Positions 2,111-48,525 of a stretch of DNA of 64,000 nucleotides are shown here, piece by piece. The notes under the pieces were generated by a model. It searched no databases, was not told the origin of the DNA, and worked only from the letters and a program-made list of their open reading frames with translations. A program made the translations under genes and the position numbers. The stretch is from NCBI RefSeq assembly GCF_056712565.1, contig NZ_CM160072.1. One strand, given 5' to 3'. Each line of letters opens with the position of its first letter. Positions within the stretch are counted from its first letter, which is position 1.

Positions 2111-4378
2111 TTACGCTTTCACACACATAACGTGGTAAATACCGTCAATAATTTCTGTCCCTTCTGTTTCGTGTTCAAATCCAGGGAAATGATGGTCCCA
2201 GGATTGCAGCGAGCGTAAATAACTTACTTGCGGACTGTTTTTATCGCCGAAGTTTTCACCAGACAGCAGCATCGGGATTCCTGGCGGATACGGGATAACT
2301 GAGTTTGCCGCGATACGTCCTGGCAGATTTTCAATGGATACCAGTTCGACATTGTTGTCGACAATCGCGTTGTACGCTTCACGCGGGGTGATTTCCGCCA
2401 CCGGTAGGCCGGAATAGGCTTCATTCAACCGTGCGCCAGGGTTGTTTTCTTTCAGCCAGGCAAACATGGTGTCACCCAGATCGTGAATCCCTATGTTCGC
2501 GTAAGTGTCAGGATATTGTTCAACAAGTTCCGGCATCACCTGCGCCAGCGGTGTGTTGGCATCATAGTGGCGTTTGAAGGAGCAAAGGGTGTTAACCAGA
2601 GTCCCCCATTTCCCACGGGTCACGCCCATAGAGAACAGGAACATAATCTGGAAGTCAGTGGTACGGGTAGGCACAATGCCGTGGCGACCAAGCCAGGCTG
2701 TGACCAGCGCCGCCGGAACACCGGTTTCTTCCAGTTCACCATCTTCACCCATTCCCGGAGCAAGGATGCTGACTTTAATCGGGTCGAGCATACTCCAGTT
2801 ATCCGGAATATCTTTGAAGCCGTGCCAGCTTTCGCCCGGATGCATGACCCAGCAGTCCTGAACGGTGGTCAGCAGTTTGGTTGGTGCGTCAGCAAAGTCA
2901 TAGGTTTTGCCGGTTTGTGGGTCGGTGACGACTTCTTTGTTCCACGGTTTGAAGAACCAGCTACCGTCAGCGGTGAACTCTTTATACAGCCGCGCCATCG
3001 CCTGACGGAAATCAACCGCTTCGTCGATCACTTCCTGGGTCAGTGACAGGCCGCTGTTGCCGTCCATCATCGACACTGCCACGTCGTTGGATGCGCAGAT
3101 GGCATACAGCGGGGAGGTGGTGGCATGCATCATGTAGGCCTGGTTGAAGCGGGAGAAGTTAATCGCCCCACGACCTTCACGTACATGAATATAAGAGGCC
3201 TGGGACAGCGCATTCAGCAGTTTGTGGGTGGAGTGGGTGGCGAAAACGGTAGGACCGTTGTGATCGCCAGGTTCGCCGCGCATGGCATAGTGATCGGCAT
3301 AGATCGGGTTGAAACGTGCATAGCCGTACCAGGCTTCGTCAAAGTGCAGACGATCGGAGGTTTTTTCCAGCAGATCCTGCGCTTCTTTAGCGTTATAACA
3401 CACGCCGTCATAGGTACAGTTGGTCACCACGCAGTAAGACGGTTTTTGCCCGACTTTGTCTTTGGTCAGCGGGCTTTCACTGATTTTCTTCTGCAAGGTT
3501 TCAGGTTGCATTTCCTGCGGATAGATTGGCCCGATAATGCCGTAGCGGTTGCGGCTTGGCACCATGTAGACCGGTTTCGCGCCTGTCAGCATCAAGCCTT
3601 GTTCGATGGATTTATGGCAGTTACGGTCAACGACCACGACATCGTTATCGGTCATGCAAGCCTGCATGATGGTGCGGTTAGAGCCGGAAGTACCGACGAC
3701 TACCGACCAGGAGCGATCGGCACCAAATACGCGTGCGGCATATCTTTCGCTTTCGCCAAATGCGCCAGTATGGTCAAGCAAAGAACCGAGGGAAGTGCGT
3801 TCGATGCCCATGTCGGTGCGGAACAGATTTTCACCATAGTAGTCATGGTAGAAACGTCCGGCGGGTGTTTTGGTAAAACCAACGCCGCCCTGGTGGCCTG
3901 GCGCTGCCCAGGAATATTCATGGATGTCGCTATATTTCATCAGCGCGCTGAACAGTGGCGGCAATAGCTGCTGGCGGTAGCGGGTCATCGCGGCAACGGC
4001 GCGTCCGGCGATAAAGTCGGCAGTATCTTCCAGAATCCAGGCGAATTCATCGACAAGCTCCAGCAGGTCGCGATCCATTGCGGCGAGGGCTTTTTCCCGA
4101 TCGCCCAACAGGAAGACCGGCACGTTTTGTTGGCGCTCATGAAGCTTACCGATCAATTGTCTGACGTTTTGATGTTCGTCCGGATGTTCCATTTGATAGC
4201 TGAACATCAGGCAGTCAATGGCTTCGTTTGAAGAGAGAATGGCAAAACCATCATCAAAGGAGGTGGATTTAATCACGGTAACATTTTGCTGGCTTAAAGC
4301 ATCTGCCAGACGCTCAACGGCGTTACCGACCCAGGTGTCTTGATGGAGAAACTCGCTTTCAACAATTAATACTTTCAT
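2111..4378 (-). CDS. adiA: Biodegradative arginine decarboxylase (PLP-dependent, acid resistance)
   Basis: ORF track 756 aa starting MMKVLIVESEF; canonical start taken at second Met (755 aa); fold-type I decarboxylase paralogous to cadA. Confidence 0.95.
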   Translation of the reverse strand: MKVLIVESEFLHQDTWVGNAVERLADALSQQNVTVIKSTSFDDGFAILSSNEAIDCLMFSYQMEHPDEHQNVRQLIGKLHERQQNVPVFLLGDREKALAAMDRDLLELVDEFAWILEDTADFIAGRAVAAMTRYRQQLLPPLFSALMKYSDIHEYSWAAPGHQGGVGFTKTPAGRFYHDYYGENLFRTDMGIERTSLGSLLDHTGAFGESERYAARVFGADRSWSVVVGTSGSNRTIMQACMTDNDVVVVDRNCHKSIEQGLMLTGAKPVYMVPSRNRYGIIGPIYPQEMQPETLQKKISESPLTKDKVGQKPSYCVVTNCTYDGVCYNAKEAQDLLEKTSDRLHFDEAWYGYARFNPIYADHYAMRGEPGDHNGPTVFATHSTHKLLNALSQASYIHVREGRGAINFSRFNQAYMMHATTSPLYAICASNDVAVSMMDGNSGLSLTQEVIDEAVDFRQAMARLYKEFTADGSWFFKPWNKEVVTDPQTGKTYDFADAPTKLLTTVQDCWVMHPGESWHGFKDIPDNWSMLDPIKVSILAPGMGEDGELEETGVPAALVTAWLGRHGIVPTRTTDFQIMFLFSMGVTRGKWGTLVNTLCSFKRHYDANTPLAQVMPELVEQYPDTYANIGIHDLGDTMFAWLKENNPGARLNEAYSGLPVAEITPREAYNAIVDNNVELVSIENLPGRIAANSVIPYPPGIPMLLSGENFGDKNSPQVSYLRSLQSWDHHFPGFEHETEGTEIIDGIYHVMCVKA

Positions 4379-4576: not shown

Positions 4577-5485
4577 TTAGCCGGGAAACGTCTGGCGGCG
4601 CTGTTGGCTAAGTTTGCGGTATTGTTGCGGCGACATGCCGACATATTTGCCGAACGTGCTGTAAAAACGGCTACTCGAACGAAAGCCTGCCGTCAGGGCA
4701 ATATCGAGAATACTTTTATCGGTATCGCTCAGTAACGCGCGAACGTGGTTGATGCGCATCGCGGTAATGTACTGTTTCATCGTCAATTGCATGACCCGCT
4801 GGAATATCCCCATTGCATAGTTGGCGTTAAGTTTGACGTGCTCAGCCACATCGTTGATGGTCAGCGCCTGATCATAGTTTTCGGCAATAAAGCCCAGCAT
4901 CTGGCTGACATAAAATTGCGCATGGCGCGAGACGCTGTTTTTGTGTGTGCGCGAGGTTTTATTGACCAGAATCGGTTCCCAGCCAGAGAGGCTAAATCGC
5001 TTGAGCATCAGGCCAATTTCATCAATGGCGAGCTGGCGAATTTGCTCGTTCTGACTGTTTAATTCCTGCTGCCAGCGGCGCACTTCAAACGGGCTAAGTT
5101 GCTGTGTCGCCAGTGATTTGATCACCATGCCGTGAGTGACGTGGTTAATCAGGTCTTTATCCAGCGGCCAGGAGAGAAACAGATGCATCGGCAGATTAAA
5201 AATCGCCATGCTCTGACAGGTTCCGGTATCTGTTAGTTGGTGCGGTGTACAGGCCCAGAACAGCGTGATATGACCCTGATTGATATTCACTTTTTCATTG
5301 TTGATCAGGTATTCCACATCGCCATCGAAAGGCACATTCACTTCGACCTGACCATGCCAGTGGCTGGTGGGCATGATATGCGGTGCGCGAAACTCAATTT
5401 CCATCCGCTGGTATTCTGAATACAGCGACAGTGGGCTACGGGTCTGCTTTTCGTCGCTGCTGCACATAAACGTATCTGTATTCAT
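4577..5485 (-). CDS. melR: Melibiose operon AraC-family activator
   Basis: 302-aa ORF with C-terminal AraC HTH, divergent from melA. Confidence 0.9.
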   Translation of the reverse strand: MNTDTFMCSSDEKQTRSPLSLYSEYQRMEIEFRAPHIMPTSHWHGQVEVNVPFDGDVEYLINNEKVNINQGHITLFWACTPHQLTDTGTCQSMAIFNLPMHLFLSWPLDKDLINHVTHGMVIKSLATQQLSPFEVRRWQQELNSQNEQIRQLAIDEIGLMLKRFSLSGWEPILVNKTSRTHKNSVSRHAQFYVSQMLGFIAENYDQALTINDVAEHVKLNANYAMGIFQRVMQLTMKQYITAMRINHVRALLSDTDKSILDIALTAGFRSSSRFYSTFGKYVGMSPQQYRKLSQQRRQTFPG

Positions 5486-5767: not shown

Positions 5768-7123
5768 ATGATGTCTGCACCCAAAATTACATTTATCGGC
5801 GCTGGTTCGACGATTTTCGTTAAAAATATTCTTGGTGATGTGTTCCATCGAGAGGCGCTGAAAACGGCGCATATTGCCCTGATGGATATCGATCCCACCC
5901 GCCTGGAAGAGTCGCACATTGTGGTGCGTAAGCTGATGGATTCAGCAGGGGCCAGCGGCAAAATCACCTGCCACACCCAACAGAAAGAAGCCTTACAGGA
6001 TGCTGATTTTGTGGTGGTGGCATTTCAGATTGGCGGTTATGAACCTTGCACGGTGACTGATTTCGAGGTCTGTAAGCGGCATGGTCTGGAACAAACCATT
6101 GCCGATACGCTGGGGCCGGGCGGCATTATGCGTGCGCTACGTACCATTCCGCACCTGTGGCAGATTTGCGAGGACATGACGGAAGTCTGCCCCGATGCCA
6201 CCATGCTCAACTACGTTAATCCAATGGCGATGAATACCTGGGCGATGTATGCCCGCTATCCGCATATCAAGCAGGTAGGGCTGTGCCATTCGGTGCAGGG
6301 AACGGCGGAAGAGCTGGCGCGTGACCTCAATATCGACCCGGCTACGCTGCGTTACCGTTGCGCAGGTATCAACCATATGGCGTTTTACCTGGAACTGGAG
6401 CGCAAAACCGCCGACGGCAGTTACGTGAATCTCTACCCGGAACTGCTGGCGGCTTATGAAGCAGGGCAGGCACCGAAGCCAAATATTCATGGTAATACTC
6501 GCTGCCAGAATATTGTGCGTTACGAAATGTTCAAAAAGCTGGGCTACTTCGTCACAGAATCGTCAGAACATTTTGCTGAGTACACACCGTGGTTTATTAA
6601 GCCAGGTCGTGAGGATTTGATTGAGCGTTATAAAGTACCGCTGGATGAGTACCCGAAACGCTGCGTCGAGCAGCTGGCGAACTGGCATAAAGAGCTGGAG
6701 GAGTATAAAAACGCCTCCCGGATTGATATTAAACCGTCACGGGAATATGCCAGCACAATCATGAACGCTATCTGGACTGGCGAGCCGAGTGTGATTTATG
6801 GCAATGTCCGTAACGATGGCTTGATTGATAACCTGCCACAAGGATGTTGCGTGGAAGTGGCCTGTCTGGTTGATGCTAATGGCATTCAGCCGACCAAAGC
6901 CGGTACGCTACCTTCGCATCTGGCCGCCCTGATGCAAACCAACATCAACGTACAGACGCTGCTGACAGAAGCTATTCTTACGGAAAATCGCGACCGTGTT
7001 TACCACGCCGCGATGATGGACCCGCATACTGCCGCCGTGCTGGGCATTGACGAAATATATGCTCTTGTTGACGACCTGATTGCCGCCCACGGCGACTGGC
7101 TGCCAGGCTGGTTGCACCGTTAA
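5768..7123 (+). CDS. melA: Alpha-galactosidase (NAD/Mn-dependent, GH4)
   Basis: 451-aa ORF MMSAPKITFIGAGSTIF..., Rossmann N-terminus typical of GH4; stop TAA at 7121-7123. Confidence 0.95.
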   Translation: MMSAPKITFIGAGSTIFVKNILGDVFHREALKTAHIALMDIDPTRLEESHIVVRKLMDSAGASGKITCHTQQKEALQDADFVVVAFQIGGYEPCTVTDFEVCKRHGLEQTIADTLGPGGIMRALRTIPHLWQICEDMTEVCPDATMLNYVNPMAMNTWAMYARYPHIKQVGLCHSVQGTAEELARDLNIDPATLRYRCAGINHMAFYLELERKTADGSYVNLYPELLAAYEAGQAPKPNIHGNTRCQNIVRYEMFKKLGYFVTESSEHFAEYTPWFIKPGREDLIERYKVPLDEYPKRCVEQLANWHKELEEYKNASRIDIKPSREYASTIMNAIWTGEPSVIYGNVRNDGLIDNLPQGCCVEVACLVDANGIQPTKAGTLPSHLAALMQTNINVQTLLTEAILTENRDRVYHAAMMDPHTAAVLGIDEIYALVDDLIAAHGDWLPGWLHR

Positions 7124-7770
7124 GGGGTAATCGCTTCCGGCGCTCTGGTGATTAAGCCAAAGCGCCGTAGCTGGCGGCAATGAAAGCGGGCGAGGAATAT
7201 CACCGTCGTTAATGCGCCCAGTAGTGCGCAGAACATATCGGATTGCGTATCCCACGGGTCGCCTTGAGTACCGAGAAAATCATCTGCGCCCTGGCCCATT
7301 GCCAGCGCTGCCCACCACTCGATTAACTCATACATCGCGCTTATCGCCAGCGCGACACAACAGACCAGAAACGCCACCATTTTACGCCCGCGAACGTACA
7401 TCCCGCGCACGAGGATCTCTCGTGCCACCAGTGCAGGCACCAGCCCCTGGAAAAAATGCCCCAGTTTATCATACGGATTACGGCTCAACCCCAGCCATTC
7501 CTGCACCTCAAAACCAACGGGGACTTTCGCGTAGGTGTATTGCCCGCCGACCATCAGGATGATGGCGTGAAAGAAAATGAGCGTATAGAGCAGCGGCGTT
7601 AACGGGTAACGTTTAGCGGTGGCAAGCAGTAGCGGCACGACAATAATCACCGGTGTCACTTCCATCAGCCAGGTGAGTTTGTCATGGGCCGAAATGCCGG
7701 TATAAATCAGGATTAACGTTAGCGCCAGTGCGCCGGTGTTAAGAATTAACGGCTTGAGTGTGCGGGTCAT
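7120..7770 (-). CDS. yjdF: Inner membrane protein YjdF-like (216 aa); stop codon overlaps melA stop
   Basis: Hydrophobic 216-aa ORF MTRTLKPLILNTGALALTLILIY...; convergent with melA, sharing TTAA at 7120-7123. Confidence 0.75.
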   Translation of the reverse strand: MTRTLKPLILNTGALALTLILIYTGISAHDKLTWLMEVTPVIIVVPLLLATAKRYPLTPLLYTLIFFHAIILMVGGQYTYAKVPVGFEVQEWLGLSRNPYDKLGHFFQGLVPALVAREILVRGMYVRGRKMVAFLVCCVALAISAMYELIEWWAALAMGQGADDFLGTQGDPWDTQSDMFCALLGALTTVIFLARFHCRQLRRFGLITRAPEAITP

Positions 7771-12247: not shown

Positions 12248-13875
12248 CTGTTCGACCTCTCCCCGTCCCAGGGTATCTGGACAAAAAATTGTGTGAAAAT
12301 CCCGGGTTCCGATTCCACGGCGATGCTGCCGCCGAGATTTTCTACCTGTTGTTTGACAAGTGCTAAACCGACGCCTCGCTCGCTTCCTTTTGTCGAGACA
12401 CCTTTGTCAAAAATGTGATCGATTTTGTCGGGTGCGATCCCCGGTCCATCATCGTTAACTTCGCAGTGCAGCCAGCCGTGACGGTAGTGCAATGTTACGC
12501 TAATTTCGCCACCGGGTTCCGGTCCTAATGCCTCCAGCGCGTTTTCTATCAGATTTCCCAACGTGGTAATCAGCGTCGCGACCTGATCCTCACTACCGCT
12601 GTCTGGCAGCTGGCTTTCACTGTTTAAAATCAGCGTATGGCCTAAATCGGTCGCGCGGTTAATCTTGCTGATTAAAAAACCAGCGATAACCGGAGATTTG
12701 ATCTTACCCAGCAGAGAGCCAATCTCTTCCTGATAGTTATTGGCTGTTTTGAGAATGTAATCTTCCAACTGCTTATAACTCTTCAGATGCAATAATCCGA
12801 GAATCACATGCAATTTATTCATAAATTCGTGGGATCGTTCACGAAGTGCGTCAGCATAGTTGACCAGACCGTCGAGTCGCTGCATCAGTTTACGTACTTC
12901 AGTTTTGTCCCTGAAGGTTGAAATGGCACCGATGATAACGCCATTACTGCGCACCGGAACGGTGTTGATCAGTAATAGTCGGTCCTTAATCGTAATCTCT
13001 TCGTCGCGGCGTGGGGTTCCGTCGCGTAACACTTCCGAGACATCTACCACCTGTGACCACGAGTGGCTTAGCGTCGACAGTTTCTCATCGTCCTGCGACT
13101 TACGGTAATTCAGCAATTCTTGTGCGGCATCGTTGATCAGCGTGACCTCGCCGCGATCGTCCACGGCAACGACGCCTTCTTTGATGGACTGCAACATGGC
13201 CTGGCGTTGCTCAAACAGTGTGGAGATTTCGTAGGGTTCCAGGCCGAAAAGGATTTTTTTCAGTACGTTAACCAGAATGCATGTGCCGATCAGTCCGACC
13301 AGCATGCCAAATAGTACCGACCAGATAATGCTCCAGCGACTGTCATTGATCTGTTGGGTCACGCGGCTTAACTCAAGGCCGATCGCCACCACGCCAATTT
13401 GTTTATGATTTTCATCGTAGATGGGGGTAAATACGCGTAAAGCCTGCGCCAGAAAACCGCGATTGATAGCGACATTTTCTTCGCCATTCAGCGCTTTAAG
13501 GATGTCATCACCTTTAAATGGCTGACCAATACGCTGGGCTTCAGGATGCGAGTAGCGAAGGCTTTGCATATCGGTAACGACAATAAACAGCAGATCGTTG
13601 CGTTTGCGCACGGCTTCCGCGATGGCCTGGATTCCACTCTCCTGCGGTTTTTTCTGCAAGCCCTGACGGATTTCCGGCGAGTCGGCGAGGGTACGCGCTA
13701 CTGCCAGTGCCTTGTTAGCTAGCCCGTCTCGCGTCATATCACTGATTTGCGAGAAGTAAATCAGATGCACCACCAATAGCACCGAGAACAGTACCGCGCT
13801 GACCATTAAGATCACAGTGGTACTCAATTTCATCGGACGTTTGCGTAACATACGGTAGGGCAATGAATGTCTCAT
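12244..13875 (-). CDS. dcuS: C4-dicarboxylate sensor histidine kinase
   Basis: 543-aa ORF with N-terminal TM segments, periplasmic sensor, PAS and kinase core. Confidence 0.95.
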   Translation of the reverse strand: MRHSLPYRMLRKRPMKLSTTVILMVSAVLFSVLLVVHLIYFSQISDMTRDGLANKALAVARTLADSPEIRQGLQKKPQESGIQAIAEAVRKRNDLLFIVVTDMQSLRYSHPEAQRIGQPFKGDDILKALNGEENVAINRGFLAQALRVFTPIYDENHKQIGVVAIGLELSRVTQQINDSRWSIIWSVLFGMLVGLIGTCILVNVLKKILFGLEPYEISTLFEQRQAMLQSIKEGVVAVDDRGEVTLINDAAQELLNYRKSQDDEKLSTLSHSWSQVVDVSEVLRDGTPRRDEEITIKDRLLLINTVPVRSNGVIIGAISTFRDKTEVRKLMQRLDGLVNYADALRERSHEFMNKLHVILGLLHLKSYKQLEDYILKTANNYQEEIGSLLGKIKSPVIAGFLISKINRATDLGHTLILNSESQLPDSGSEDQVATLITTLGNLIENALEALGPEPGGEISVTLHYRHGWLHCEVNDDGPGIAPDKIDHIFDKGVSTKGSERGVGLALVKQQVENLGGSIAVESEPGIFTQFFVQIPWDGERSNR

Positions 13876-14055
13876 CAGCTTCCTTGTGTGACAAATTTCT
13901 TAAGCATTATCTCTGATGAGGCGGGTAATTCAAAGGGAGTAAGAATGATTGGCTATATAGGGGAAGAGACTCTGGCAACGGAAACTGCCAGTGCTGTATG
14001 AAGATTCCGGGGCTATGCTTATAGCGATAATCATACTGATGAGAGAGGGAAGGTC

Positions 14056-14286
14056 ATGGATCGGGCGCTACTGGACGGGGGTTATCGCTGTTATACCGGC
14101 GAAAATATCGATGTCTATTTTAACACTGCGATATGTCAGCATTCTGGCAATTGCGTACGTGGCAACGGCAAGTTATTTAATCTCAAACGAAAGCCGTGGA
14201 TCATGCCGGATGAAGTCGACGTTGCCACTGTGGTTAAAGTGATTGATACGTGCCCGAGTGGCGCGCTGAAATACCGTCATAAATAA
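14056..14286 (+). CDS. yjdI: Small Cys-containing protein YjdI
   Basis: 76-aa [36 protein letters not shown]... Confidence 0.85.
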
Positions 14287-14297
14287 GCGAGGGTAAA

Positions 14298-14570
14298 ATG
14301 GAAATACGCGAAGGCCACAATAAATTTTACATTAATGACGAACAAGGCAAGCAAATCGCTGAAATTGTCTTTGTGCCGACCGGAGAGAATTTAGCGATTA
14401 TCGAACATACCGATGTCGATGAAAGCCTGAAAGGGCAAGGGATTGGTAAACAGCTGGTTGCGAAAGTCGTGGAAAAAATGCGTCGGGAAAAACGAAAAAT
14501 TATCCCACTATGCCCATTTGCGAAACACGAATTTGATAAAACACGGGAGTATGATGATATTCGCAGTTGA
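14298..14570 (+). CDS. yjdJ: Small GNAT-like protein YjdJ
   Basis: 90-aa ORF 11 nt downstream of yjdI. Confidence 0.85.
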
Positions 14571-14797
14571 TGGGAGAGTACAGAGTCACGATATTTTTCA
14601 TGCTCTCCGCGGTGTGATGCAGGAGAGCATCTGAAGGGTAGGGGGATGCACAAAGAATGGTCAGAGAGAGCGTTTTTTTGTCCCAAGTCATCCCCTTTAC
14701 TGAGCAAAAAAAAAGAATATCTCCTATATGAGAATCATCATTCGGGGTTAATAAGTTTTGCGTCCCCAGAGCGTTCAATATTGATAGGAGTCATATT

Positions 14798-15094
14798 ATG
14801 GAAGGTAAAAACAAGTTCAATACTTATGTTGTTTCTTTTGATTATCCATCATCTTATTCCTCAGTGTTCTTAAGGTTAAGATCATTGATGTATGATATGA
14901 ATTTCTCCTCTATCGTGGCTGATGAATATGGGATACCACGACAATTGAATGAAAACTCCTTCGCAATAACGACATCGTTAGCCGCAAGTGAAATCGAAGA
15001 TTTAATCAGGCTCAAATGCTTAGACTTACCGGATATTGATTTTGACCTCAGCATTATGACAGTTGATGACTATTTCCGTCAGTTTTACAAGTAG
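14798..15094 (+). CDS. ghoS: Type V antitoxin GhoS (endoribonuclease cleaving ghoT mRNA)
   Basis: 98-aa ORF MEGKNKFNTYVVSFDYPSSYSSVF...; immediately upstream of ghoT. Confidence 0.85.
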   Translation: MEGKNKFNTYVVSFDYPSSYSSVFLRLRSLMYDMNFSSIVADEYGIPRQLNENSFAITTSLAASEIEDLIRLKCLDLPDIDFDLSIMTVDDYFRQFYK

Positions 15095-15121
15095 CCAGGA
15101 AGGATAAGAAGAACATAAAAA

Positions 15122-15295
15122 ATGGCACTATTCTCTAAAATATTAATTTTTTATGTGATTGGTGTGAACATATCCTTTGTCATTATCTGGTTTATCTCAC
15201 ATGAGAAAACACATATTCGTTTACTTAGTGCATTTCTGGTCGGAATAACCTGGCCAATGAGTCTTCCTGTGGCATTACTTTTTTCTCTCTTTTAG
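15122..15295 (+). CDS. ghoT: Type V toxin GhoT, small membrane-lytic peptide (57 aa); absent from the ORF track because it is under 60 aa
   Basis: Manual translation ATG 15122 to TAG 15293-15295: MALFSKILIFYVIGVNISFVIIWFISHEKTHIRLLSAFLVGITWPMSLPVALLFSLF. Confidence 0.8.
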   Translation: MALFSKILIFYVIGVNISFVIIWFISHEKTHIRLLSAFLVGITWPMSLPVALLFSLF

Positions 15296-15370
15296 GAGCT
15301 GTAGTTGAGTGGACCCGCTGGTTATCTTGAAACGAAGCGTCTCTCCTCAAAACTGGATTTGCGGAATGAC

Positions 15371-15400
15371 GAACGAAGCAGTCGCCTGACTGCTTCGTTC
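15371..15400. terminator. Stem-loop between convergent ghoT and lysU (possible bidirectional terminator)
   Basis: gaacgaagcag...ctgcttcgttc perfect 11-bp inverted repeat followed by a T-rich tract on the plus strand. Confidence 0.35.
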
Positions 15401-15413
15401 ATTAAAGTGAAAT

Positions 15414-16931
15414 TTATTTCTGTGGGCGCATCGCCGGGAAGAGAATAACGTCGCGAATAGTATGACTGTTTGTAAACAGCATAATCATTCGGTCGATACC
15501 AATACCCAGACCAGCGGTTGGCGGCAGACCATATTCCAGCGCAGTCACGTAATCTTCGTCATAGAACATGGCTTCGTCGTCACCTGCAGCTTTAGCGTTA
15601 ACCTGTTCCTGGAAACGTTCAGCCTGATCTTCTGCGTCGTTTAATTCGCTAAAACCATTACCGATTTCACGACCACCGATGAAGAATTCAAAACGGTCGG
15701 TGATTTCCGGGTTAACATCATTACGGCGCGCCAGCGGGGACACTTCTGCCGGATATTCCGTAATAAAGGTTGGCTGAATCAGATGTGCTTCTGCCACTTC
15801 ATCAAAGATCTCCGTAACAATACGTCCCAGTCCCCAGCTTTTCTCTACCGTAATACCGATAGATTCAGCTAATGCTTTAGCAGCATCAAAATTATCCAGA
15901 TCCGCCATATCGGTTTCTGGACGATATTTTTTGATTGCTTCGCGCATGGTGAGTTTTTCAAACGGTTTGCCGAAATCAAACACATGCTCGCCATAAGTGA
16001 CTTTAGTGGTACCCAGTACCTCTTGTGCCAGGGTGCGGAACAGTGACTCCGTCAGTTCAATCAAATCGTGGTAATCCGCATATGCCATGTAGAGTTCCAT
16101 CATTGTGAACTCAGGATTATGGCGAACAGAAATACCTTCATTACGGAAGTTACGGTTGATTTCGAATACCCGTTCAAAACCGCCTACAACCAGACGTTTC
16201 AGATACAGCTCCGGCGCGATACGCAGGTACATATCTAAATCCAGAGCGTTATGATGGGTAATAAACGGGCGAGCAGATGCCCCACCTGGAATTACCTGCA
16301 TCATCGGGGTTTCTACTTCCATAAAGCCGCGCGCGACCATGAACTGACGGATAGCGGCCAGAATTTTTGAACGGACAACAAACGTTTGACGGGATTTATC
16401 GTTAGCGATGAGGTCCAGATAACGTTGACGATAACGGACTTCCTGATCCTGCAGACCATGGAATTTATCTGGTAAAGGACGTAGTGCTTTAGTCAGCAGG
16501 CGCAGCTCAGTACAGTGAATGGAAAGCTCACCCGTTTGCGTCTTAAACAGCGTACCGCGGGCACCGATAATGTCACCCAGATCCCATTTTTTAAACTGAT
16601 CGTTATAAACACCTTCTGGCAGGCTATCTCTTGCAACGTACAGTTGAATACGGCCACCGACATCCTGCAACGTTACAAAGGAGGCTTTCCCCATAATACG
16701 ACGGGTCATCATTCGGCCAGCAACCGAGACTTCAATGTTTAAGGATTCCAGTTCCTGGTTATCCTTCGCATCAAACTCTTCGTGCAACTGGTCAGAGGTA
16801 TGGTCGCGGCGAAAATCATTGGGAAACGCCACACCTTGCTGACGTAGTGCCGCCAGTTTTTCGCGGCGATTTCTCAGTTCATCGTTAAAATCAATAGCCT
16901 CATTGGCTCCCCGTGTTTCTCGTTCAGACAT
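15414..16931 (-). CDS. lysU: Lysine--tRNA ligase, inducible isoform
   Basis: ORF track 514 aa; canonical start taken at [19 protein letters not shown] (505 aa); class II aaRS motifs. Confidence 0.95.
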
Positions 16932-17167
16932 TTTGGTTCCTCTAAATCCAGCTTTCAATTTAGCGTAGATAAAGAGACAGATCGGTACACTGTATTATCT
17001 GCCTCGACTATTAATAACTCAGTTTATCTTATCGAAACTAACGCTTACCTCAAGTTGATATCACTAATAAATAACCATAAAAATGGTTTAAATGACTTAT
17101 TAATCTCGATTTGCTAGTGTGATAAACTGAAAGTTATTTTATTCATAACCAATTGTTTTTACGACAG

Positions 17168-24765: not shown

Positions 24766-24787
24766 TGGTGCCGGACTCGGAATCGAA
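24766..24787 (-). repeat. pheU: 22-nt copy of the tRNA-Phe 3' end (island attachment-site direct repeat); not an intact tRNA
   Basis: tggtgccggactcggaatcgaa equals the reverse complement of the tRNA-Phe 3' end TTCGATTCCGAGTCCGGGCACCA with one C missing; homology stops at 24787 and AT-rich foreign DNA follows. Confidence 0.7.
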
Positions 24788-25628: not shown

Positions 25629-26051
25629 TCACCGGTTCTGGTGCATAAGTTGCAGTTGGTGCAGGGTACGGATATCCTCCCTGGCCTGTTCAATACAGGG
25701 CAGCAGTGCTGCCGAATCCGTTTTATCCTCATCGTTGTCGAAAATAATTCCGGACCCGCAGTCGATATTGTCCTGCAGCCACGCAATGAGGATATCCAGC
25801 GCTGTTTCAGTGGTTAATGGCATCACGCTCTGTATCACTGTATTGTCTTCCGGCAACTGATGAGGGCTGGCATAAGTTGCCGGTGTTTCGGTAGAGTCAC
25901 GGTCATCCACCACGCGGAGTGAATCACCGTTTTCAGCGGCCTTATTAATCAGTTCAGCGAGATTAACACCATCAATGTCAACGACAATTCGCCCCATATT
26001 CAGTGCCTGTACGTTAACGCTGTCGGCTTCCGGCGTCAGGGAAAGTTTCAT
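25629..26051 (-). CDS. YeeW-like protein encoded downstream of the CbtA toxin
   Basis: 140-aa ORF overlapping the cbtA stop by 4 nt; position equivalent to yeeW in CP4-44. Confidence 0.5.
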   Translation of the reverse strand: MKLSLTPEADSVNVQALNMGRIVVDIDGVNLAELINKAAENGDSLRVVDDRDSTETPATYASPHQLPEDNTVIQSVMPLTTETALDILIAWLQDNIDCGSGIIFDNDEDKTDSAALLPCIEQAREDIRTLHQLQLMHQNR

Positions 26052-26425
26052 TGTTTCACCTCCGGGTGCTTACCCAGGATAATATTATTTACCGTTCTGT
26101 AATTGTCGCGGGTCATCAGGCCGGTCGCCCTGCGAGCCCGGAGGATATCAATACTGTTTATTAACTGAGAACGGGTACAGGCGCTGAATCCCGGCTGGTC
26201 GGTACGTACCAGTGCGTATTTTTCAACGAGAAAGTTCACCGCATCGCACAGTGAAATGCCTGCCTCAATATGCTGCTCAATCACACGTTCATCAGCGAAC
26301 GGTGTGTCATTCAGCGTAAGGCCGTAGTGCTGATCCAGCAGTCGGGTGAGCAGTGTCTGCCAGATTTCAACCGGAGACGGGCGTGAACTGGCCGCCTGCC
26401 CGGGTAATACAGGTAATGTTTTCAT
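26048..26425 (-). CDS. cbtA: CbtA-family toxin (type IV TA; cytoskeleton inhibitor)
   Basis: 125-aa ORF MKTLPVLPGQAASSRPSPVEIWQTLLTRLLDQHYGLTLNDTPFADE..., near-identical to recalled K-12 CbtA/YeeV. Confidence 0.85.
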   Translation of the reverse strand: MKTLPVLPGQAASSRPSPVEIWQTLLTRLLDQHYGLTLNDTPFADERVIEQHIEAGISLCDAVNFLVEKYALVRTDQPGFSACTRSQLINSIDILRARRATGLMTRDNYRTVNNIILGKHPEVKQ

Positions 26426-26513
26426 ACTGAAGATTTTCCTGATATGCAGAGATGAAAAATGGAAAAGTGGCGTGGTGAAAGCACCAGGCCGAGCAGAAGG
26501 TTATTCTGGAGAG

Positions 26514-26882
26514 TTACTTTTTCGTTTCGGGCGTCGGATAAACAGCCATATAAACGTAGCCACAACTGCCGAGGGTGTCGGCTTCGCAGGTCAGCCCTTT
26601 TGCATACAGCGTGACGGTATGCTGATGGCGGGGATTCAGTTCACCGCTGGTGAGCATGAGTTCCAGTTGTTTCATCAGCAGCGGAAAGGCCTGGTCCAGG
26701 TGGTACGAATCCGCGTCGCTGAACCGCCCTCTGATACCGGCGCGGTCGGCAAGGTAATGCAACCGGTTGCCTTCCTGTACCAGACGGGCACCAAAACAGG
26801 GCGTCACGGTGCAGGGCAGTCCCCACCAGGTACGGTCGTTATTGTCGTCGGGAAGCGTTGTCCCGGGGAGTGTGTCTGACAC
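26514..26882 (-). CDS. cbeA: CbeA-family antitoxin (YeeU/YfjZ family)
   Basis: 122-aa ORF MSDTLPGTTLPDDNNDRTWWGLPCTVTPCFGARLVQEGNRLHYLADRAG... Confidence 0.85.
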   Translation of the reverse strand: MSDTLPGTTLPDDNNDRTWWGLPCTVTPCFGARLVQEGNRLHYLADRAGIRGRFSDADSYHLDQAFPLLMKQLELMLTSGELNPRHQHTVTLYAKGLTCEADTLGSCGYVYMAVYPTPETKK

Positions 26883-36806: not shown

Positions 36807-36980
36807 ATGAACTACATCACCAGTTTCACCGGTATGACCGATAAATGGTTTTACAAGCTGATCAGTGAAGGTCATTTCCCTAAACCCATCAAACTGGGGC
36901 GCAGCAGCCGCTGGTACAAAAGTGAAGTGGAGCAGTGGATGCAGCAGCGAATTGAGGAATCACGAGGAGCAGCAGCATGA
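36807..36980 (+). CDS. alpA: AlpA-family phage transcriptional regulator (excisionase-like HTH)
   Basis: TDKWFYKLISEGHFPKPIKLGRSSRWYKSEVEQW matches the AlpA signature; ORF track start 36747, internal Met at 36807 preferred. Confidence 0.7.
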   Translation: MNYITSFTGMTDKWFYKLISEGHFPKPIKLGRSSRWYKSEVEQWMQQRIEESRGAAA

Positions 36981-37098
36981 AACGTGTTGCAATACCAGCG
37001 CCGGCATTGCGGAAATCAGCCCTGTCCCCGATGCTGGCGACACTCCCGCTCATCTTTCTGCTGACTCCTCTGGTCTGCCAACTGTTTGTCATCATTTC

Positions 37099-37266
37099 CT
37101 GACTGATTCGTCATTCCCTTCGTCCCGCCAGTCACTGGTGTTTGTATCGTACCGTCCGGTGTTGATGTGCGTTTTCCGTGTGTCTGCACCGGCTTAACAA
37201 AATTCAACAGGGTTTGAAAAGGAACATTTCGTGCAAATAACCGAAGCCTTAATTTCAGAGCCGGGA
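37099..37266. repeat. Copy 1 of a ~150-170 bp repeat (inverted relative to copy 2 at 44502-44651) with a conserved 7-1-7 palindrome
   Basis: Manual alignment to the reverse complement of 44502-44651: blocks ccggctctgaaa, gcttcggttatttgca, tccttttcaaacc, cgccagtNactggcg, gaatgacga shared; roughly 75 percent identity. Confidence 0.6.
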
Positions 37267-44713: not shown

Positions 44714-46515
44714 GTAGGAGGCGGGATCACTCCCGCCGTCCTCTCACACCACCGTACATGCGGCTCCGCATACGGCGGTTCATGTTAACACTGGAACTGC
44801 CTCTGCTGTTCCAGCAGTGATATCAGACCCTGCCTGCTGAACCACGCATTCTTTATCGCCTGATTCATATGGCTTGACTCTGAGTTCCACCATGGCCCGT
44901 GGTTGTTGTACGCTGAGATCATCGCCCTGTCCTTACTCAGTCCTGCTCTTTGCAGGTTCTTTGCCCGGGTTAGCGGTCTCTTCCACTGCCGCTACAACAA
45001 GCAACGCAGTTTCCGTTTGATCCAGCCATCCAGCTCCTCCAGCACTCCTCTGACCTCCGTCAGCCTGAAGTAGCTTATCCATCCACACAGCACTGGTGTC
45101 AGAGCATTGATTGTCGCTTTCACTGATTTGCTCCGGTTTCCCGTCGTCAGACTGTGGACTTTCTCCTTCAGCCTGTTCACGCTCGTCAGGGCTATCTTCA
45201 GCTTCGCCTGTTTGTGCCATGTCACACTGTACCCGAGGAACTTCCGATCCCACGGGCGCGCCACCGCGCTCTTCTTCTCATTCACCTTCAGTTTGTTCTC
45301 CACGAACGCCCTGATGTTCTTCAGCAGATGGTCGCCCGCTTTCCGGCTGCTTACGTAGATGTTGCAGTCGTCTGCGTAGCGGCAGAAGCTGTGTCCACGA
45401 CGCTCCAGTTCTTTATCCAGTTCATCCAGCAGGATGTTCGACAGTAACGGCGACAGTGGGCCGCCCTGCAGCATGCCCGCCTGCCGTTTCTCCCTTTGCC
45501 CGTCTTTAACCATTTCCGCTTTCAGGTAGCGGCGTATCAGTCACAGCACCCGCCTGTCCTTTATCGTTCTGGCCAGACGCGTCATCAGGAGTCTGTGATC
45601 CACCCGGTCGAAGAACTTCTCCAGATCCATATCCACCACCCACCGTTTGCCACCCCGTATGTAACGCTGTGCCTGTTGCACCGCCTGCTGGATAAGCCTG
45701 TCCACCACCGTCGGGATGCCTGAGGTTCTCACGCCGCCATCCGGCTTCGGGATATCCATCCGGCGTATTGTCCGCGGCTGGTAGTTTCCGTCAATCAATG
45801 CCTGCCTGACGCTGCGCCAGTTCTTCTTCAGCCACGGTTTCAACTCCGCCACGCTGAGGTTATCCACCCCCGCCGTGCCTTTGTTTTCCACCACGCGCTG
45901 ATAAGCCAGCATCAGGTTTTCTCTCGTTATCACCGCTTCCATCGTCAGCGGCACTTCCGCTTTCGTTTGCCCACCCGCCGCCGTGCTGATTTCAGCGCCA
46001 TCATGCAGCCCTGACGGATACTGTCCGTCTCCTCTGCCGCTGGTCGCAGTGGCCTGCGCTTGTGCTTCATTAATCATCATCGGGTTCGGATGTCCTAATC
46101 ACAGTTAATCATGTTCGGCCCTTCATGCTGCCGGTTTTGCAGCACTACTACGGCGTCGGCTGACTTCTGCCGCCCCATCCCGGCGCCTCACGGCGCCGGT
46201 AGCACACTGGCAGGGCGACAGATCTCCCGGGGTAATTCACGCGACTTTCCTGCTTATGCCTGTCGGCTTTACGTCACAGCGTTCCGTGTGAGTATCGGGC
46301 TTTGGTGATTAGTGCCACCTTACCCTGCTGCGCCGCCTTAACCGCTTCCTGTTCGTCAGGCCAGCATTTTGCATCCAGCTTCCTTCAGATTTCACCTCGC
46401 GATGAACACCCTTGCCTTCCGCTAACACTTCCCCTCACCGGGTGTGTGGAGGACTTTCACCTCTTAGTCGTTCTTCTGCCACCACAGTTGAAGAACAGCG
46501 CCAGTCACGGCGCAC
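44714..46515 (-). mobile_element. Group II intron (bacterial class C-like: inserted just downstream of an intrinsic terminator)
   Basis: Minus-strand 5' end GTGCG at 46511-46515, six nt after the terminator U-tract; domain V-like hairpin (GAACCGCCGTATGCGGAGCCGCATGTACGG) and domain VI-like hairpin near 44715-44780; RT ORF inside; 3' boundary approximate. Confidence 0.7.
44992..45942 (-). pseudogene. Intron-encoded reverse transcriptase/maturase interrupted by in-frame stop codons
   Basis: RT motifs (GVDNLSV, QGGPLSPLLSNILLDELD, FCRYADDCNIYV) and X-domain (CGWISYFRL); in-frame TGA at 45541-45543 and TAG at 44992-44994 after which the frame still reads RQWKRPLTRAKNLQ. Confidence 0.7.
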
Positions 46516-47607: not shown

Positions 47608-48525
47608 TTAACCGCCGATATGGCAGTTAAAACCTAAGGATTCAACCATTGCTTTTAACTCTGCCATTTGGGCTTCTTCGATACTTTTTGTATCGCCCAT
47701 CGGATACTGGCGACCAAGCAGATTATATTTATTTTCACCGAAGCTGTGATAAGGCAATAAGTGAATGGTATCGACGTTCTGCATCAGGCGGGCGAACTCC
47801 GCAATATTATGGATTTCCTGCGAATTGTCATTCACTCCTGGGATCACAGGAATACGCACAACCACTTTGGTTAAAAAGGAGATGCGCAGCAGATTCTCCA
47901 GAATCACTCTGTTATTCACGCCGGTGTTGCGCTCATGGATTTCCGGATCGATGGCTTTAATATCGGTCAGAGCAAGATCGACATAGGGAAATATCTCATC
48001 AATCACCGCTTTGGTGGTGAAGCCGCTTGTTTCAATAGCGGTGTGCCAGCCTTTGGCTTTACAGGCTTTAAGCAGCTCGCGGGCAAATTCCGGCTGCGCC
48101 AGCGGTTCACCACCGGACAGGGTAATCCCGCCGCCTGAACGCCGGTATAAATTCTCTTCTTTTTCCAGTTCGCGCATCACTGCCGTTACCGACATACGCT
48201 TGCCCTTCATTTCCAGCGCACGGGTAGGGCAAATCTCAGTACATTTCCCACACTGAATACAGCGGTCGCGATTGATAAACCAGGCATTAGTAGTGGAAAG
48301 AGCCTGTTGTGGGCAAGCATCAATACATTTTCCACAGCGGATGCAATCATTCTTTTTAAATAATAACTCTGGGCTGTGACGTTGTGATTCAGGATTACTA
48401 CACCATTTGCAGGACAGCGGGCAGCCTTTAAAAAAAGGAATGGTTCGAATGCCTGGACCATCATGCAAAGAATAGCGTTGAATATTAAATATGACGCCTT
48501 CGGTTTCGTACTCAACTTTATTCAT
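47608..48525 (-). CDS. Glycyl-radical enzyme activating enzyme (radical SAM, with two ferredoxin-like 4Fe-4S motifs)
   Basis: 305-aa ORF with CPLSCKWCSNPE radical-SAM motif and CIRCGKCIDACP / CIQCGKCTEICP clusters. Confidence 0.9.
   Translation of the reverse strand: MNKVEYETEGVIFNIQRYSLHDGPGIRTIPFFKGCPLSCKWCSNPESQRHSPELLFKKNDCIRCGKCIDACPQQALSTTNAWFINRDRCIQCGKCTEICPTRALEMKGKRMSVTAVMRELEKEENLYRRSGGGITLSGGEPLAQPEFARELLKACKAKGWHTAIETSGFTTKAVIDEIFPYVDLALTDIKAIDPEIHERNTGVNNRVILENLLRISFLTKVVVRIPVIPGVNDNSQEIHNIAEFARLMQNVDTIHLLPYHSFGENKYNLLGRQYPMGDTKSIEEAQMAELKAMVESLGFNCHIGG

Follow-up and report, generated by a model that had tools for sequence, protein, structure and literature searches.

Does the short open reading frame at positions 15122-15295 of the 64,000-base stretch of DNA analysed here (the window) encode the membrane toxin GhoT, and if it does, can the toxin be released there as has been described for Escherichia coli K-12? 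An earlier note on this DNA had placed a 57-amino-acid GhoT at these positions, directly downstream of ghoS, and had remarked that the gene is missing from a list of open reading frames with a 60-amino-acid minimum. The list was re-made, and the 57-amino-acid frame is indeed not in it. Between 14790 and 15420, the frames of at least 60 amino acids are those of ghoS, a convergent 514-amino-acid frame for lysU, and two frames that overlap ghoS; ghoT is not listed. The features of the locus are as follows.

14571..14797, + strand: yjdJ-ghoS intergenic region of 227 nt, the expected home of the ghoST promoter and 5' UTR
14646-14873, + strand: overlapping open reading frame, one of a pair of 75 and 66 amino acids; passes the 60-amino-acid filter, no support
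14798..15094, + strand: ghoS antitoxin gene, 98 amino acids (K-12 identity, PF11080, PDB 2LLZ, ATCC 11775 annotation)
14854-15054, - strand: overlapping open reading frame, the other of that pair; passes the 60-amino-acid filter, no support
15095..15121, + strand: ghoS-ghoT spacer, 27 nt, purine-rich, CCAGGAAGGATAAGAAGAACATAAAAA, the presumed ghoT ribosome-binding region
15122..15295, + strand: ghoT toxin gene, 57 codons and a stop (K-12 identity, PF10753, RefSeq annotation)
15371..15400, no strand assigned: hairpin with a perfect 13-bp stem and a 4-nt loop, GAACGAAGCAGTC-GCCT-GACTGCTTCGTTC (folding z = -3.1 and z = -5.7)

The frame begins with ATG at 15122 and ends with TAG at 15293-15295 on the + strand, which gives 57 codons plus the stop and the translation MALFSKILIFYVIGVNISFVIIWFISHEKTHIRLLSAFLVGITWPMSLPVALLFSLF. 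Comparison of this product with GhoT of K-12 MG1655 (b4559), the check that had been proposed, gives 57 identical residues of 57 over the full length, and the coordinates of the earlier note are exact. At the DNA level the window and K-12 differ at two bases, both of them synonymous third positions (F38 TTT/TTC and L48 CTT/CTG). The Pfam family PF10753 (Toxin_GhoT_OrtT) is matched at 90.4 bits with E=8.9e-26, four times the gathering cut-off of 22.1, and the alignment of residues 4-57 to model positions 1-55 of 55 covers the whole model, which places the product within the GhoT/OrtT family. The RefSeq protein WP_001173343.1 is GhoT in ATCC 11775, and the same protein is found in all strains sampled. 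GhoT and GhoS gave no match to the NCBIfam, PADLOC and PHROGs models; Pfam alone models the pair, and these null scans carry no weight against the identity of ghoT. A sequence search of the PDB with GhoT found no solved structure.

Membership of a family that is named for two toxins raises the reading that the frame encodes not GhoT but its orphan paralogue, OrtT (YdcX). OrtT is merely 63% identical to GhoT, however, whereas the window product is 100% identical to it; the window gene adjoins ghoS and lies between yjdJ and lysU, and it holds no GCU site, whereas the gene for OrtT has two. We regard the OrtT reading as wholly improbable, and it is ruled out by the identity with GhoT together with synteny. 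It is close to certain, then, that positions 15122-15295 are ghoT, which in E. coli belongs to the type V toxin-antitoxin pair GhoT/GhoS, at the chromosomal site where the pair normally lies. Judged by its sequence, the gene encodes the founding GhoT protein itself, at the same locus and with the same antitoxin, rather than one more member of the family.

The genomic context is that of a conserved chromosomal locus. The window is the reverse complement of positions 4335533-4399532 of NZ_CP033092.2, the record for the type strain E. coli ATCC 11775, with two mismatches, and the RefSeq annotation of that record has ghoS and ghoT at exactly the window positions. The two mismatches lie at window position 45055, in a maturase-like open reading frame inside the grp cluster, and at 47994. 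The gene order is dcuS, then yjdI-yjdJ-ghoS-ghoT, then lysU-dtpC-cadA, the same as in K-12. The ghoT described here is thus a known gene of a known pair, already annotated at its exact position, and nothing about it is new.

The 721-bp ghoST locus is 100% identical in many E. coli chromosomes, and among 5426 complete E. coli genomes, 5318-5321 (about 98%) carry the ghoST segment, nearly always as a single chromosomal copy. A search of a phage collection with GhoT gave no match. Matches in plasmid records are mostly to Pantoea megaplasmids, with GhoT/OrtT family proteins of 52-56% identity, and the rest are mislabelled chromosomes. Therefore, ghoT is not the cargo of a mobile element in E. coli. 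Roughly 2% of complete E. coli genomes are without ghoST. One such strain is E. coli ET220 (NZ_CP100981.1; extracted locus 3001-4217), in which ghoS is cut down to its first 50 nt, with an IS1 behind it and tRNA-Phe beyond that, a layout that implies an IS1-associated deletion of ghoS'-ghoT-lysU-dtpC-cadABC.

The second part of the earlier claim was that ghoS and ghoT make up the known type V pair, and the upstream gene bears this out. The window GhoS is identical to that of K-12 at 97 of 98 residues, with a serine in place of asparagine at residue 85 as the sole substitution, and the gene carries one synonymous change as well. Pfam PF11080 (GhoS) is matched at 138 bits, where the cut-off is 21, and the PDB match is 2LLZ ('yjdK'), an NMR structure, with E=4e-61. 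Direct counting along the translation finds L25, R28 and M31 in the window protein, and R28 and its neighbouring residues are identical to those of K-12. Neither a translation other than GhoT nor the lack of an adjoining ghoS, the two findings that would speak against the pair, was encountered. There is no evidence against the identity of ghoT, and the caveats given below touch on mechanism alone. As to variation in the antitoxin, codon 85 (15050-15052) specifies serine in the window and asparagine in K-12 and five other diverse strains, and among seven strains there are four protein variants of GhoS and one of GhoT.

Is a frame of 57 codons a gene at all? It could be held that the frame is an untranslated one, open by chance in AT-rich DNA. 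Short frames are plentiful here: 45 of at least 20 amino acids overlap the 2.5-kb stretch around ghoST, the GC content of ghoS and ghoT is about 34-36%, and two longer spurious frames lie over ghoS. In addition, the Shine-Dalgarno match of ghoT is weak or distant, given that the AGGA motifs of the spacer are at least 17 nt from the ATG. The length of the frame by itself does not mark ghoT as non-random. The frame is nonetheless a real gene because of its K-12 identity, its Pfam score and its synonymous-only polymorphism, none of which depends on length. The product matches, at 100% identity, a protein toxin that has been characterised by experiment (PMC4344625), and its PF10753 score stands far above the cut-off.

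The polymorphism was assessed in seven E. coli copies (the window, K-12, O157:H7 and four others), which were picked to span the diversity found. The GhoT protein is invariant among them. Three sites of ghoT are polymorphic, all of them synonymous third positions, where 39 synonymous and 132 non-synonymous sites were available; the chance that all three would be synonymous under neutrality is (39/171)^3, or about 0.012. Homologues also occur beyond E. coli, given that tblastn finds relatives of 46-56% identity in Pantoea, where the annotation reads GhoT/OrtT family toxin, and an unannotated one of 46.6% in Proteus. The reading of ghoT as a chance frame is therefore already refuted, and we give it next to no credence.

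The consequence is mainly one of method. The 60-amino-acid cut-off hides a real, characterised gene, yet within the same 500 bases it lists two longer spurious frames. Therefore, frame length serves poorly as a filter in AT-rich islets; for small genes homology or conservation is preferable. The spurious frames, of 75 and 66 amino acids at 14646-14873 (+) and 14854-15054 (-), were listed while the real 57-amino-acid gene was filtered out. The biological importance of the observation is very low, and the value of ghoT here is methodological.

The earlier note had warned that the same could happen to other small genes. The warning is sound as a principle; among the frames screened, however, no other family-supported frame below 60 amino acids came to light. 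In the curated K-12 annotation of the shared backbone, from adiC to pheU, ghoT is the sole intact coding sequence of fewer than 60 amino acids. Over the full window, the annotation of ATCC 11775 has as other features of fewer than 60 codons a 41-amino-acid hypothetical protein and two pseudogene fragments. The 11.3 kb of unannotated sequence wholly contains 54 frames of 30-59 amino acids. The screen took in the 41-amino-acid hypothetical protein and ten of these 54. Ten small proteins (the hypothetical protein and nine frames that are preceded by a Shine-Dalgarno sequence, are hydrophobic or are among the longest) were compared with Pfam and nine of those ten with PHROGs, and no match was found.

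The arrangement of the locus suggests how the pair may be expressed. The two genes follow one another on the same strand with a gap of 27 nt, an operon-like arrangement, and this spacing together with the literature suggests that ghoS and ghoT are co-transcribed. The spacer is identical to that of K-12, and among six other strains a single one departs from it, at one base; it may serve as the ribosome-binding region of ghoT. A consensus scan of the 227-nt yjdJ-ghoS spacer gave no promoter on the + strand, and the sole sigma-70-like site on that strand, at 14533-14561, falls within the 3' end of yjdJ. Among the few differences in the presumed promoter and 5' UTR is a run of A residues in the yjdJ-ghoS spacer at about 14706-14714, which is A9 here and A8 in K-12.

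Downstream, the hairpin at 15371-15400 lies between the convergent ghoT and lysU and probably marks the shared 3' end of their transcripts. The consensus scan found no canonical terminator, and the hairpin is without a canonical U-tract on either strand; it would act as a terminator and set the boundary of a ghoST transcript. An Rfam scan of positions 13500-16500, with E values up to 1, matched no family, which leaves no known RNA element or antisense RNA at the locus. The convergent gene, at 15414-16931 on the - strand, is the positional orthologue of lysU, and PGAP calls it lysS here and in other records. The mechanical frame for lysU starts nine codons earlier, with a TTG at 16958.

The genes ghoT and ghoS, and their mechanism, were reportedly first described in 2012. 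The account given here is drawn from later papers, mostly from one laboratory, and from reviews. By calculation, GhoT is extremely hydrophobic, with a GRAVY of 1.50 and two hydrophobic segments, at about residues 1-26 and 34-57, each of membrane-spanning length. They are separated by a polar loop, H27-E-K-T-H-I-R33, in which the charged residues of the protein (together with H27 and H31) are located, with the exception of K6. The protein is described as a membrane-damaging ('lytic') toxin that lowers ATP (PMC4344625, PMC4905990), and a GFP-tagged version was found at the cell poles (PMC4010927). The substitution F38R abolishes toxicity (PMC4344625), and F38 is present in the window protein. 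Given what has been published on the K-12 protein, which is identical, GhoT would be expected to enter the inner membrane, damage it and cause ATP to drop, and overproduction would lead to growth arrest, 'ghost' cells and lysis as reported in K-12.

The antitoxin is described as acting on the message rather than on the toxin. GhoS is a non-labile protein with no control over transcription of the pair, and specific cleavage of ghoT mRNA is what defines type V (PMC4344625, PMC8230891). In structure GhoS is homologous to Cas2, and of its five conserved catalytic residues R28 is the most important for endoribonuclease activity; L25 and M31 are named as positions near R28, and about 20 other transcripts are degraded as well (PMC4010927). 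In the proposed mechanism, a stable, Cas2-like GhoS would neither bind the toxin nor repress transcription but would cut ghoT mRNA, with R28 as the key residue, such that the toxin would not be translated. Because GhoT is identical and GhoS nearly identical to the K-12 proteins, the same toxin and antitoxin chemistry would be expected to hold in the window strain.

The release of the toxin is a separate matter. In K-12 the GCU-specific RNase toxin MqsR prefers to cleave the ghoS-ghoT mRNA in its antitoxin part; given that ghoT is without GCU sites, its message is enriched upon cleavage by MqsR (PMC5408214, PMC4905990). MqsR would thus cut at GCU and destroy the ghoS part, and the GCU-free ghoT part would be spared and the toxin made. 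The coding regions of the window conform to this pattern, with three GCU sites in ghoS (14918, 15010 and 15018) and zero in ghoT, and the asymmetry of three against zero is constant in the window and the six other strains. For a gene of 174 nt and 34% GC, however, composition-preserving shuffles give zero GCU with P about 0.11, so that a GCU-free ghoT is weak evidence on its own.

The gene pair for the trigger, mqsRA, is missing from the place where K-12 has it. In ATCC 11775 the adjacent genes ygiV and ygiS are separated by no more than 108 bp (NZ_CP033092.2 718541-720739), where K-12 has mqsR-mqsA, and blastn found no mqsRA in the 50-kb ygiV-ygiS stretch or in the 64-kb window. By megablast, 2298 of 5426 complete E. 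coli genomes (about 42%) match the K-12 mqsRA, and 3128 (about 58%) give no match. All matches reach at least 99% identity, a sign that the gene pair is polymorphic for presence and absence. Because the syntenic site is without mqsRA, the K-12 MqsR trigger is inapplicable in the window strain, a divergent MqsR elsewhere in the genome aside, and because mqsRA is missing from 3128 of the 5426 genomes, the published activation cascade cannot be general. The missing genes affect the trigger step alone, and neither the identity of ghoT nor the chemistry of toxin and antitoxin.

We therefore lean, with some reserve, towards the reading that the window gene is a genuine GhoT which, here and in most E. 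coli, stands outside the MqsR cascade, and that it either responds to another signal or belongs to a pair that is essentially always silenced. Acid or intracellular stress might, for instance, induce transcription of the pair, or another RNase might act in place of MqsR. This reading draws on the empty site between ygiV and ygiS in ATCC 11775, on the genome counts (2298 for mqsRA vs 5318 for ghoST, each of 5426), and on the compatibility of the absence of GCU in ghoT with chance. It also draws on the B2 strain NRG857c, for which no MqsRA homologue was reported and in which ghoT mRNA goes up at acid pH and in macrophages and down with bile salts (PMC7232551). Against it, the check for mqsRA covered the syntenic site and the window, and a divergent MqsR-like RNase would escape megablast; further, the asymmetry in GCU sites is kept in every copy examined, including those from mqsRA-less lineages such as O157:H7.

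We see an even chance that MqsR is not the ancestral and general controller of GhoT, a role that would instead fall to, for example, a transcriptional signal or a different RNase, and that ghoT is free of GCU largely because the gene is short and AT-rich. That a B2 strain is without MqsRA was already known from the literature, and the present extension is modest. Still, ghoST is far commoner than its supposed controller mqsRA, which calls for caution in carrying the K-12 regulatory model over to other E. coli lineages.

Other parts of the window differ from K-12 in ways that touch neither gene. The melibiose permease gene melB is missing at window positions 7123-7144, where a 1,665-bp K-12 segment with the whole of melB has no counterpart, and the strain is predicted from this sequence to be without the MelB transporter. 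The gene melA (5768-7123, +) abuts and overlaps the extended annotation of yjdF (7120-7770, -). Homology to K-12 stops in a 22-nt 3' fragment of the tRNA-Phe gene pheU, at about 24766-24787, which is one base shorter than in K-12, and no intact tRNA was found in the window. Positions 24788-64000 form a large island with the following features.

26048-26882: CP4-like genes with a cbtA / YeeU-family type IV toxin-antitoxin pair
36977-37102, + strand: 41-amino-acid hypothetical protein WP_000831909.1 (RefSeq; no Pfam or PHROGs match)
about 40238-60592: grp glycyl-radical propanediol microcompartment cluster
44992-46080: reverse transcriptase and maturase open reading frames
near the end of the island and window: truncated VasL-domain and POTRA-domain pseudogenes

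The closest known system is GhoT/GhoS (YjdO/YjdK) of K-12 itself. The two share the toxin at 57 of 57 residues, the antitoxin at 97 of 98, the 27-nt spacer, yjdI and yjdJ as upstream neighbours with lysU convergent downstream, and three and zero GCU sites. The window differs in its two synonymous changes in ghoT, in S85 for N85 and one synonymous change in ghoS, and in that its host strain is without mqsRA at the K-12 site.

A functional likeness extends to the membrane peptides of type I toxin-antitoxin systems, such as Hok, TisB, Ldr and Ibs, in which the antitoxin is an antisense RNA. By analogy, GhoT resembles these in being a small, hydrophobic inner-membrane peptide that would be blocked at the level of its mRNA rather than of its activity. 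The systems differ in that the antitoxin of type I is an antisense RNA whereas that of ghoST is a protein endoribonuclease, and no membership is claimed.

OrtT shares with GhoT the Pfam family, the length, two predicted transmembrane segments and F38, as well as membrane damage and the lowering of ATP (PMC4344625). Besides its 63% identity and its two GCU sites, OrtT is unlike GhoT in that it has no adjoining antitoxin, is not neutralised by GhoS and is encoded at another locus (PMC4344625). On the antitoxin side, the comparison is with Cas2, the CRISPR-associated endoribonuclease, of which GhoS is by description a structural homologue, with R28 found in the window GhoS (PMC4010927). Unlike Cas2, GhoS has no CRISPR context, and its substrates are ghoT mRNA and the roughly 20 other transcripts (PMC4010927).
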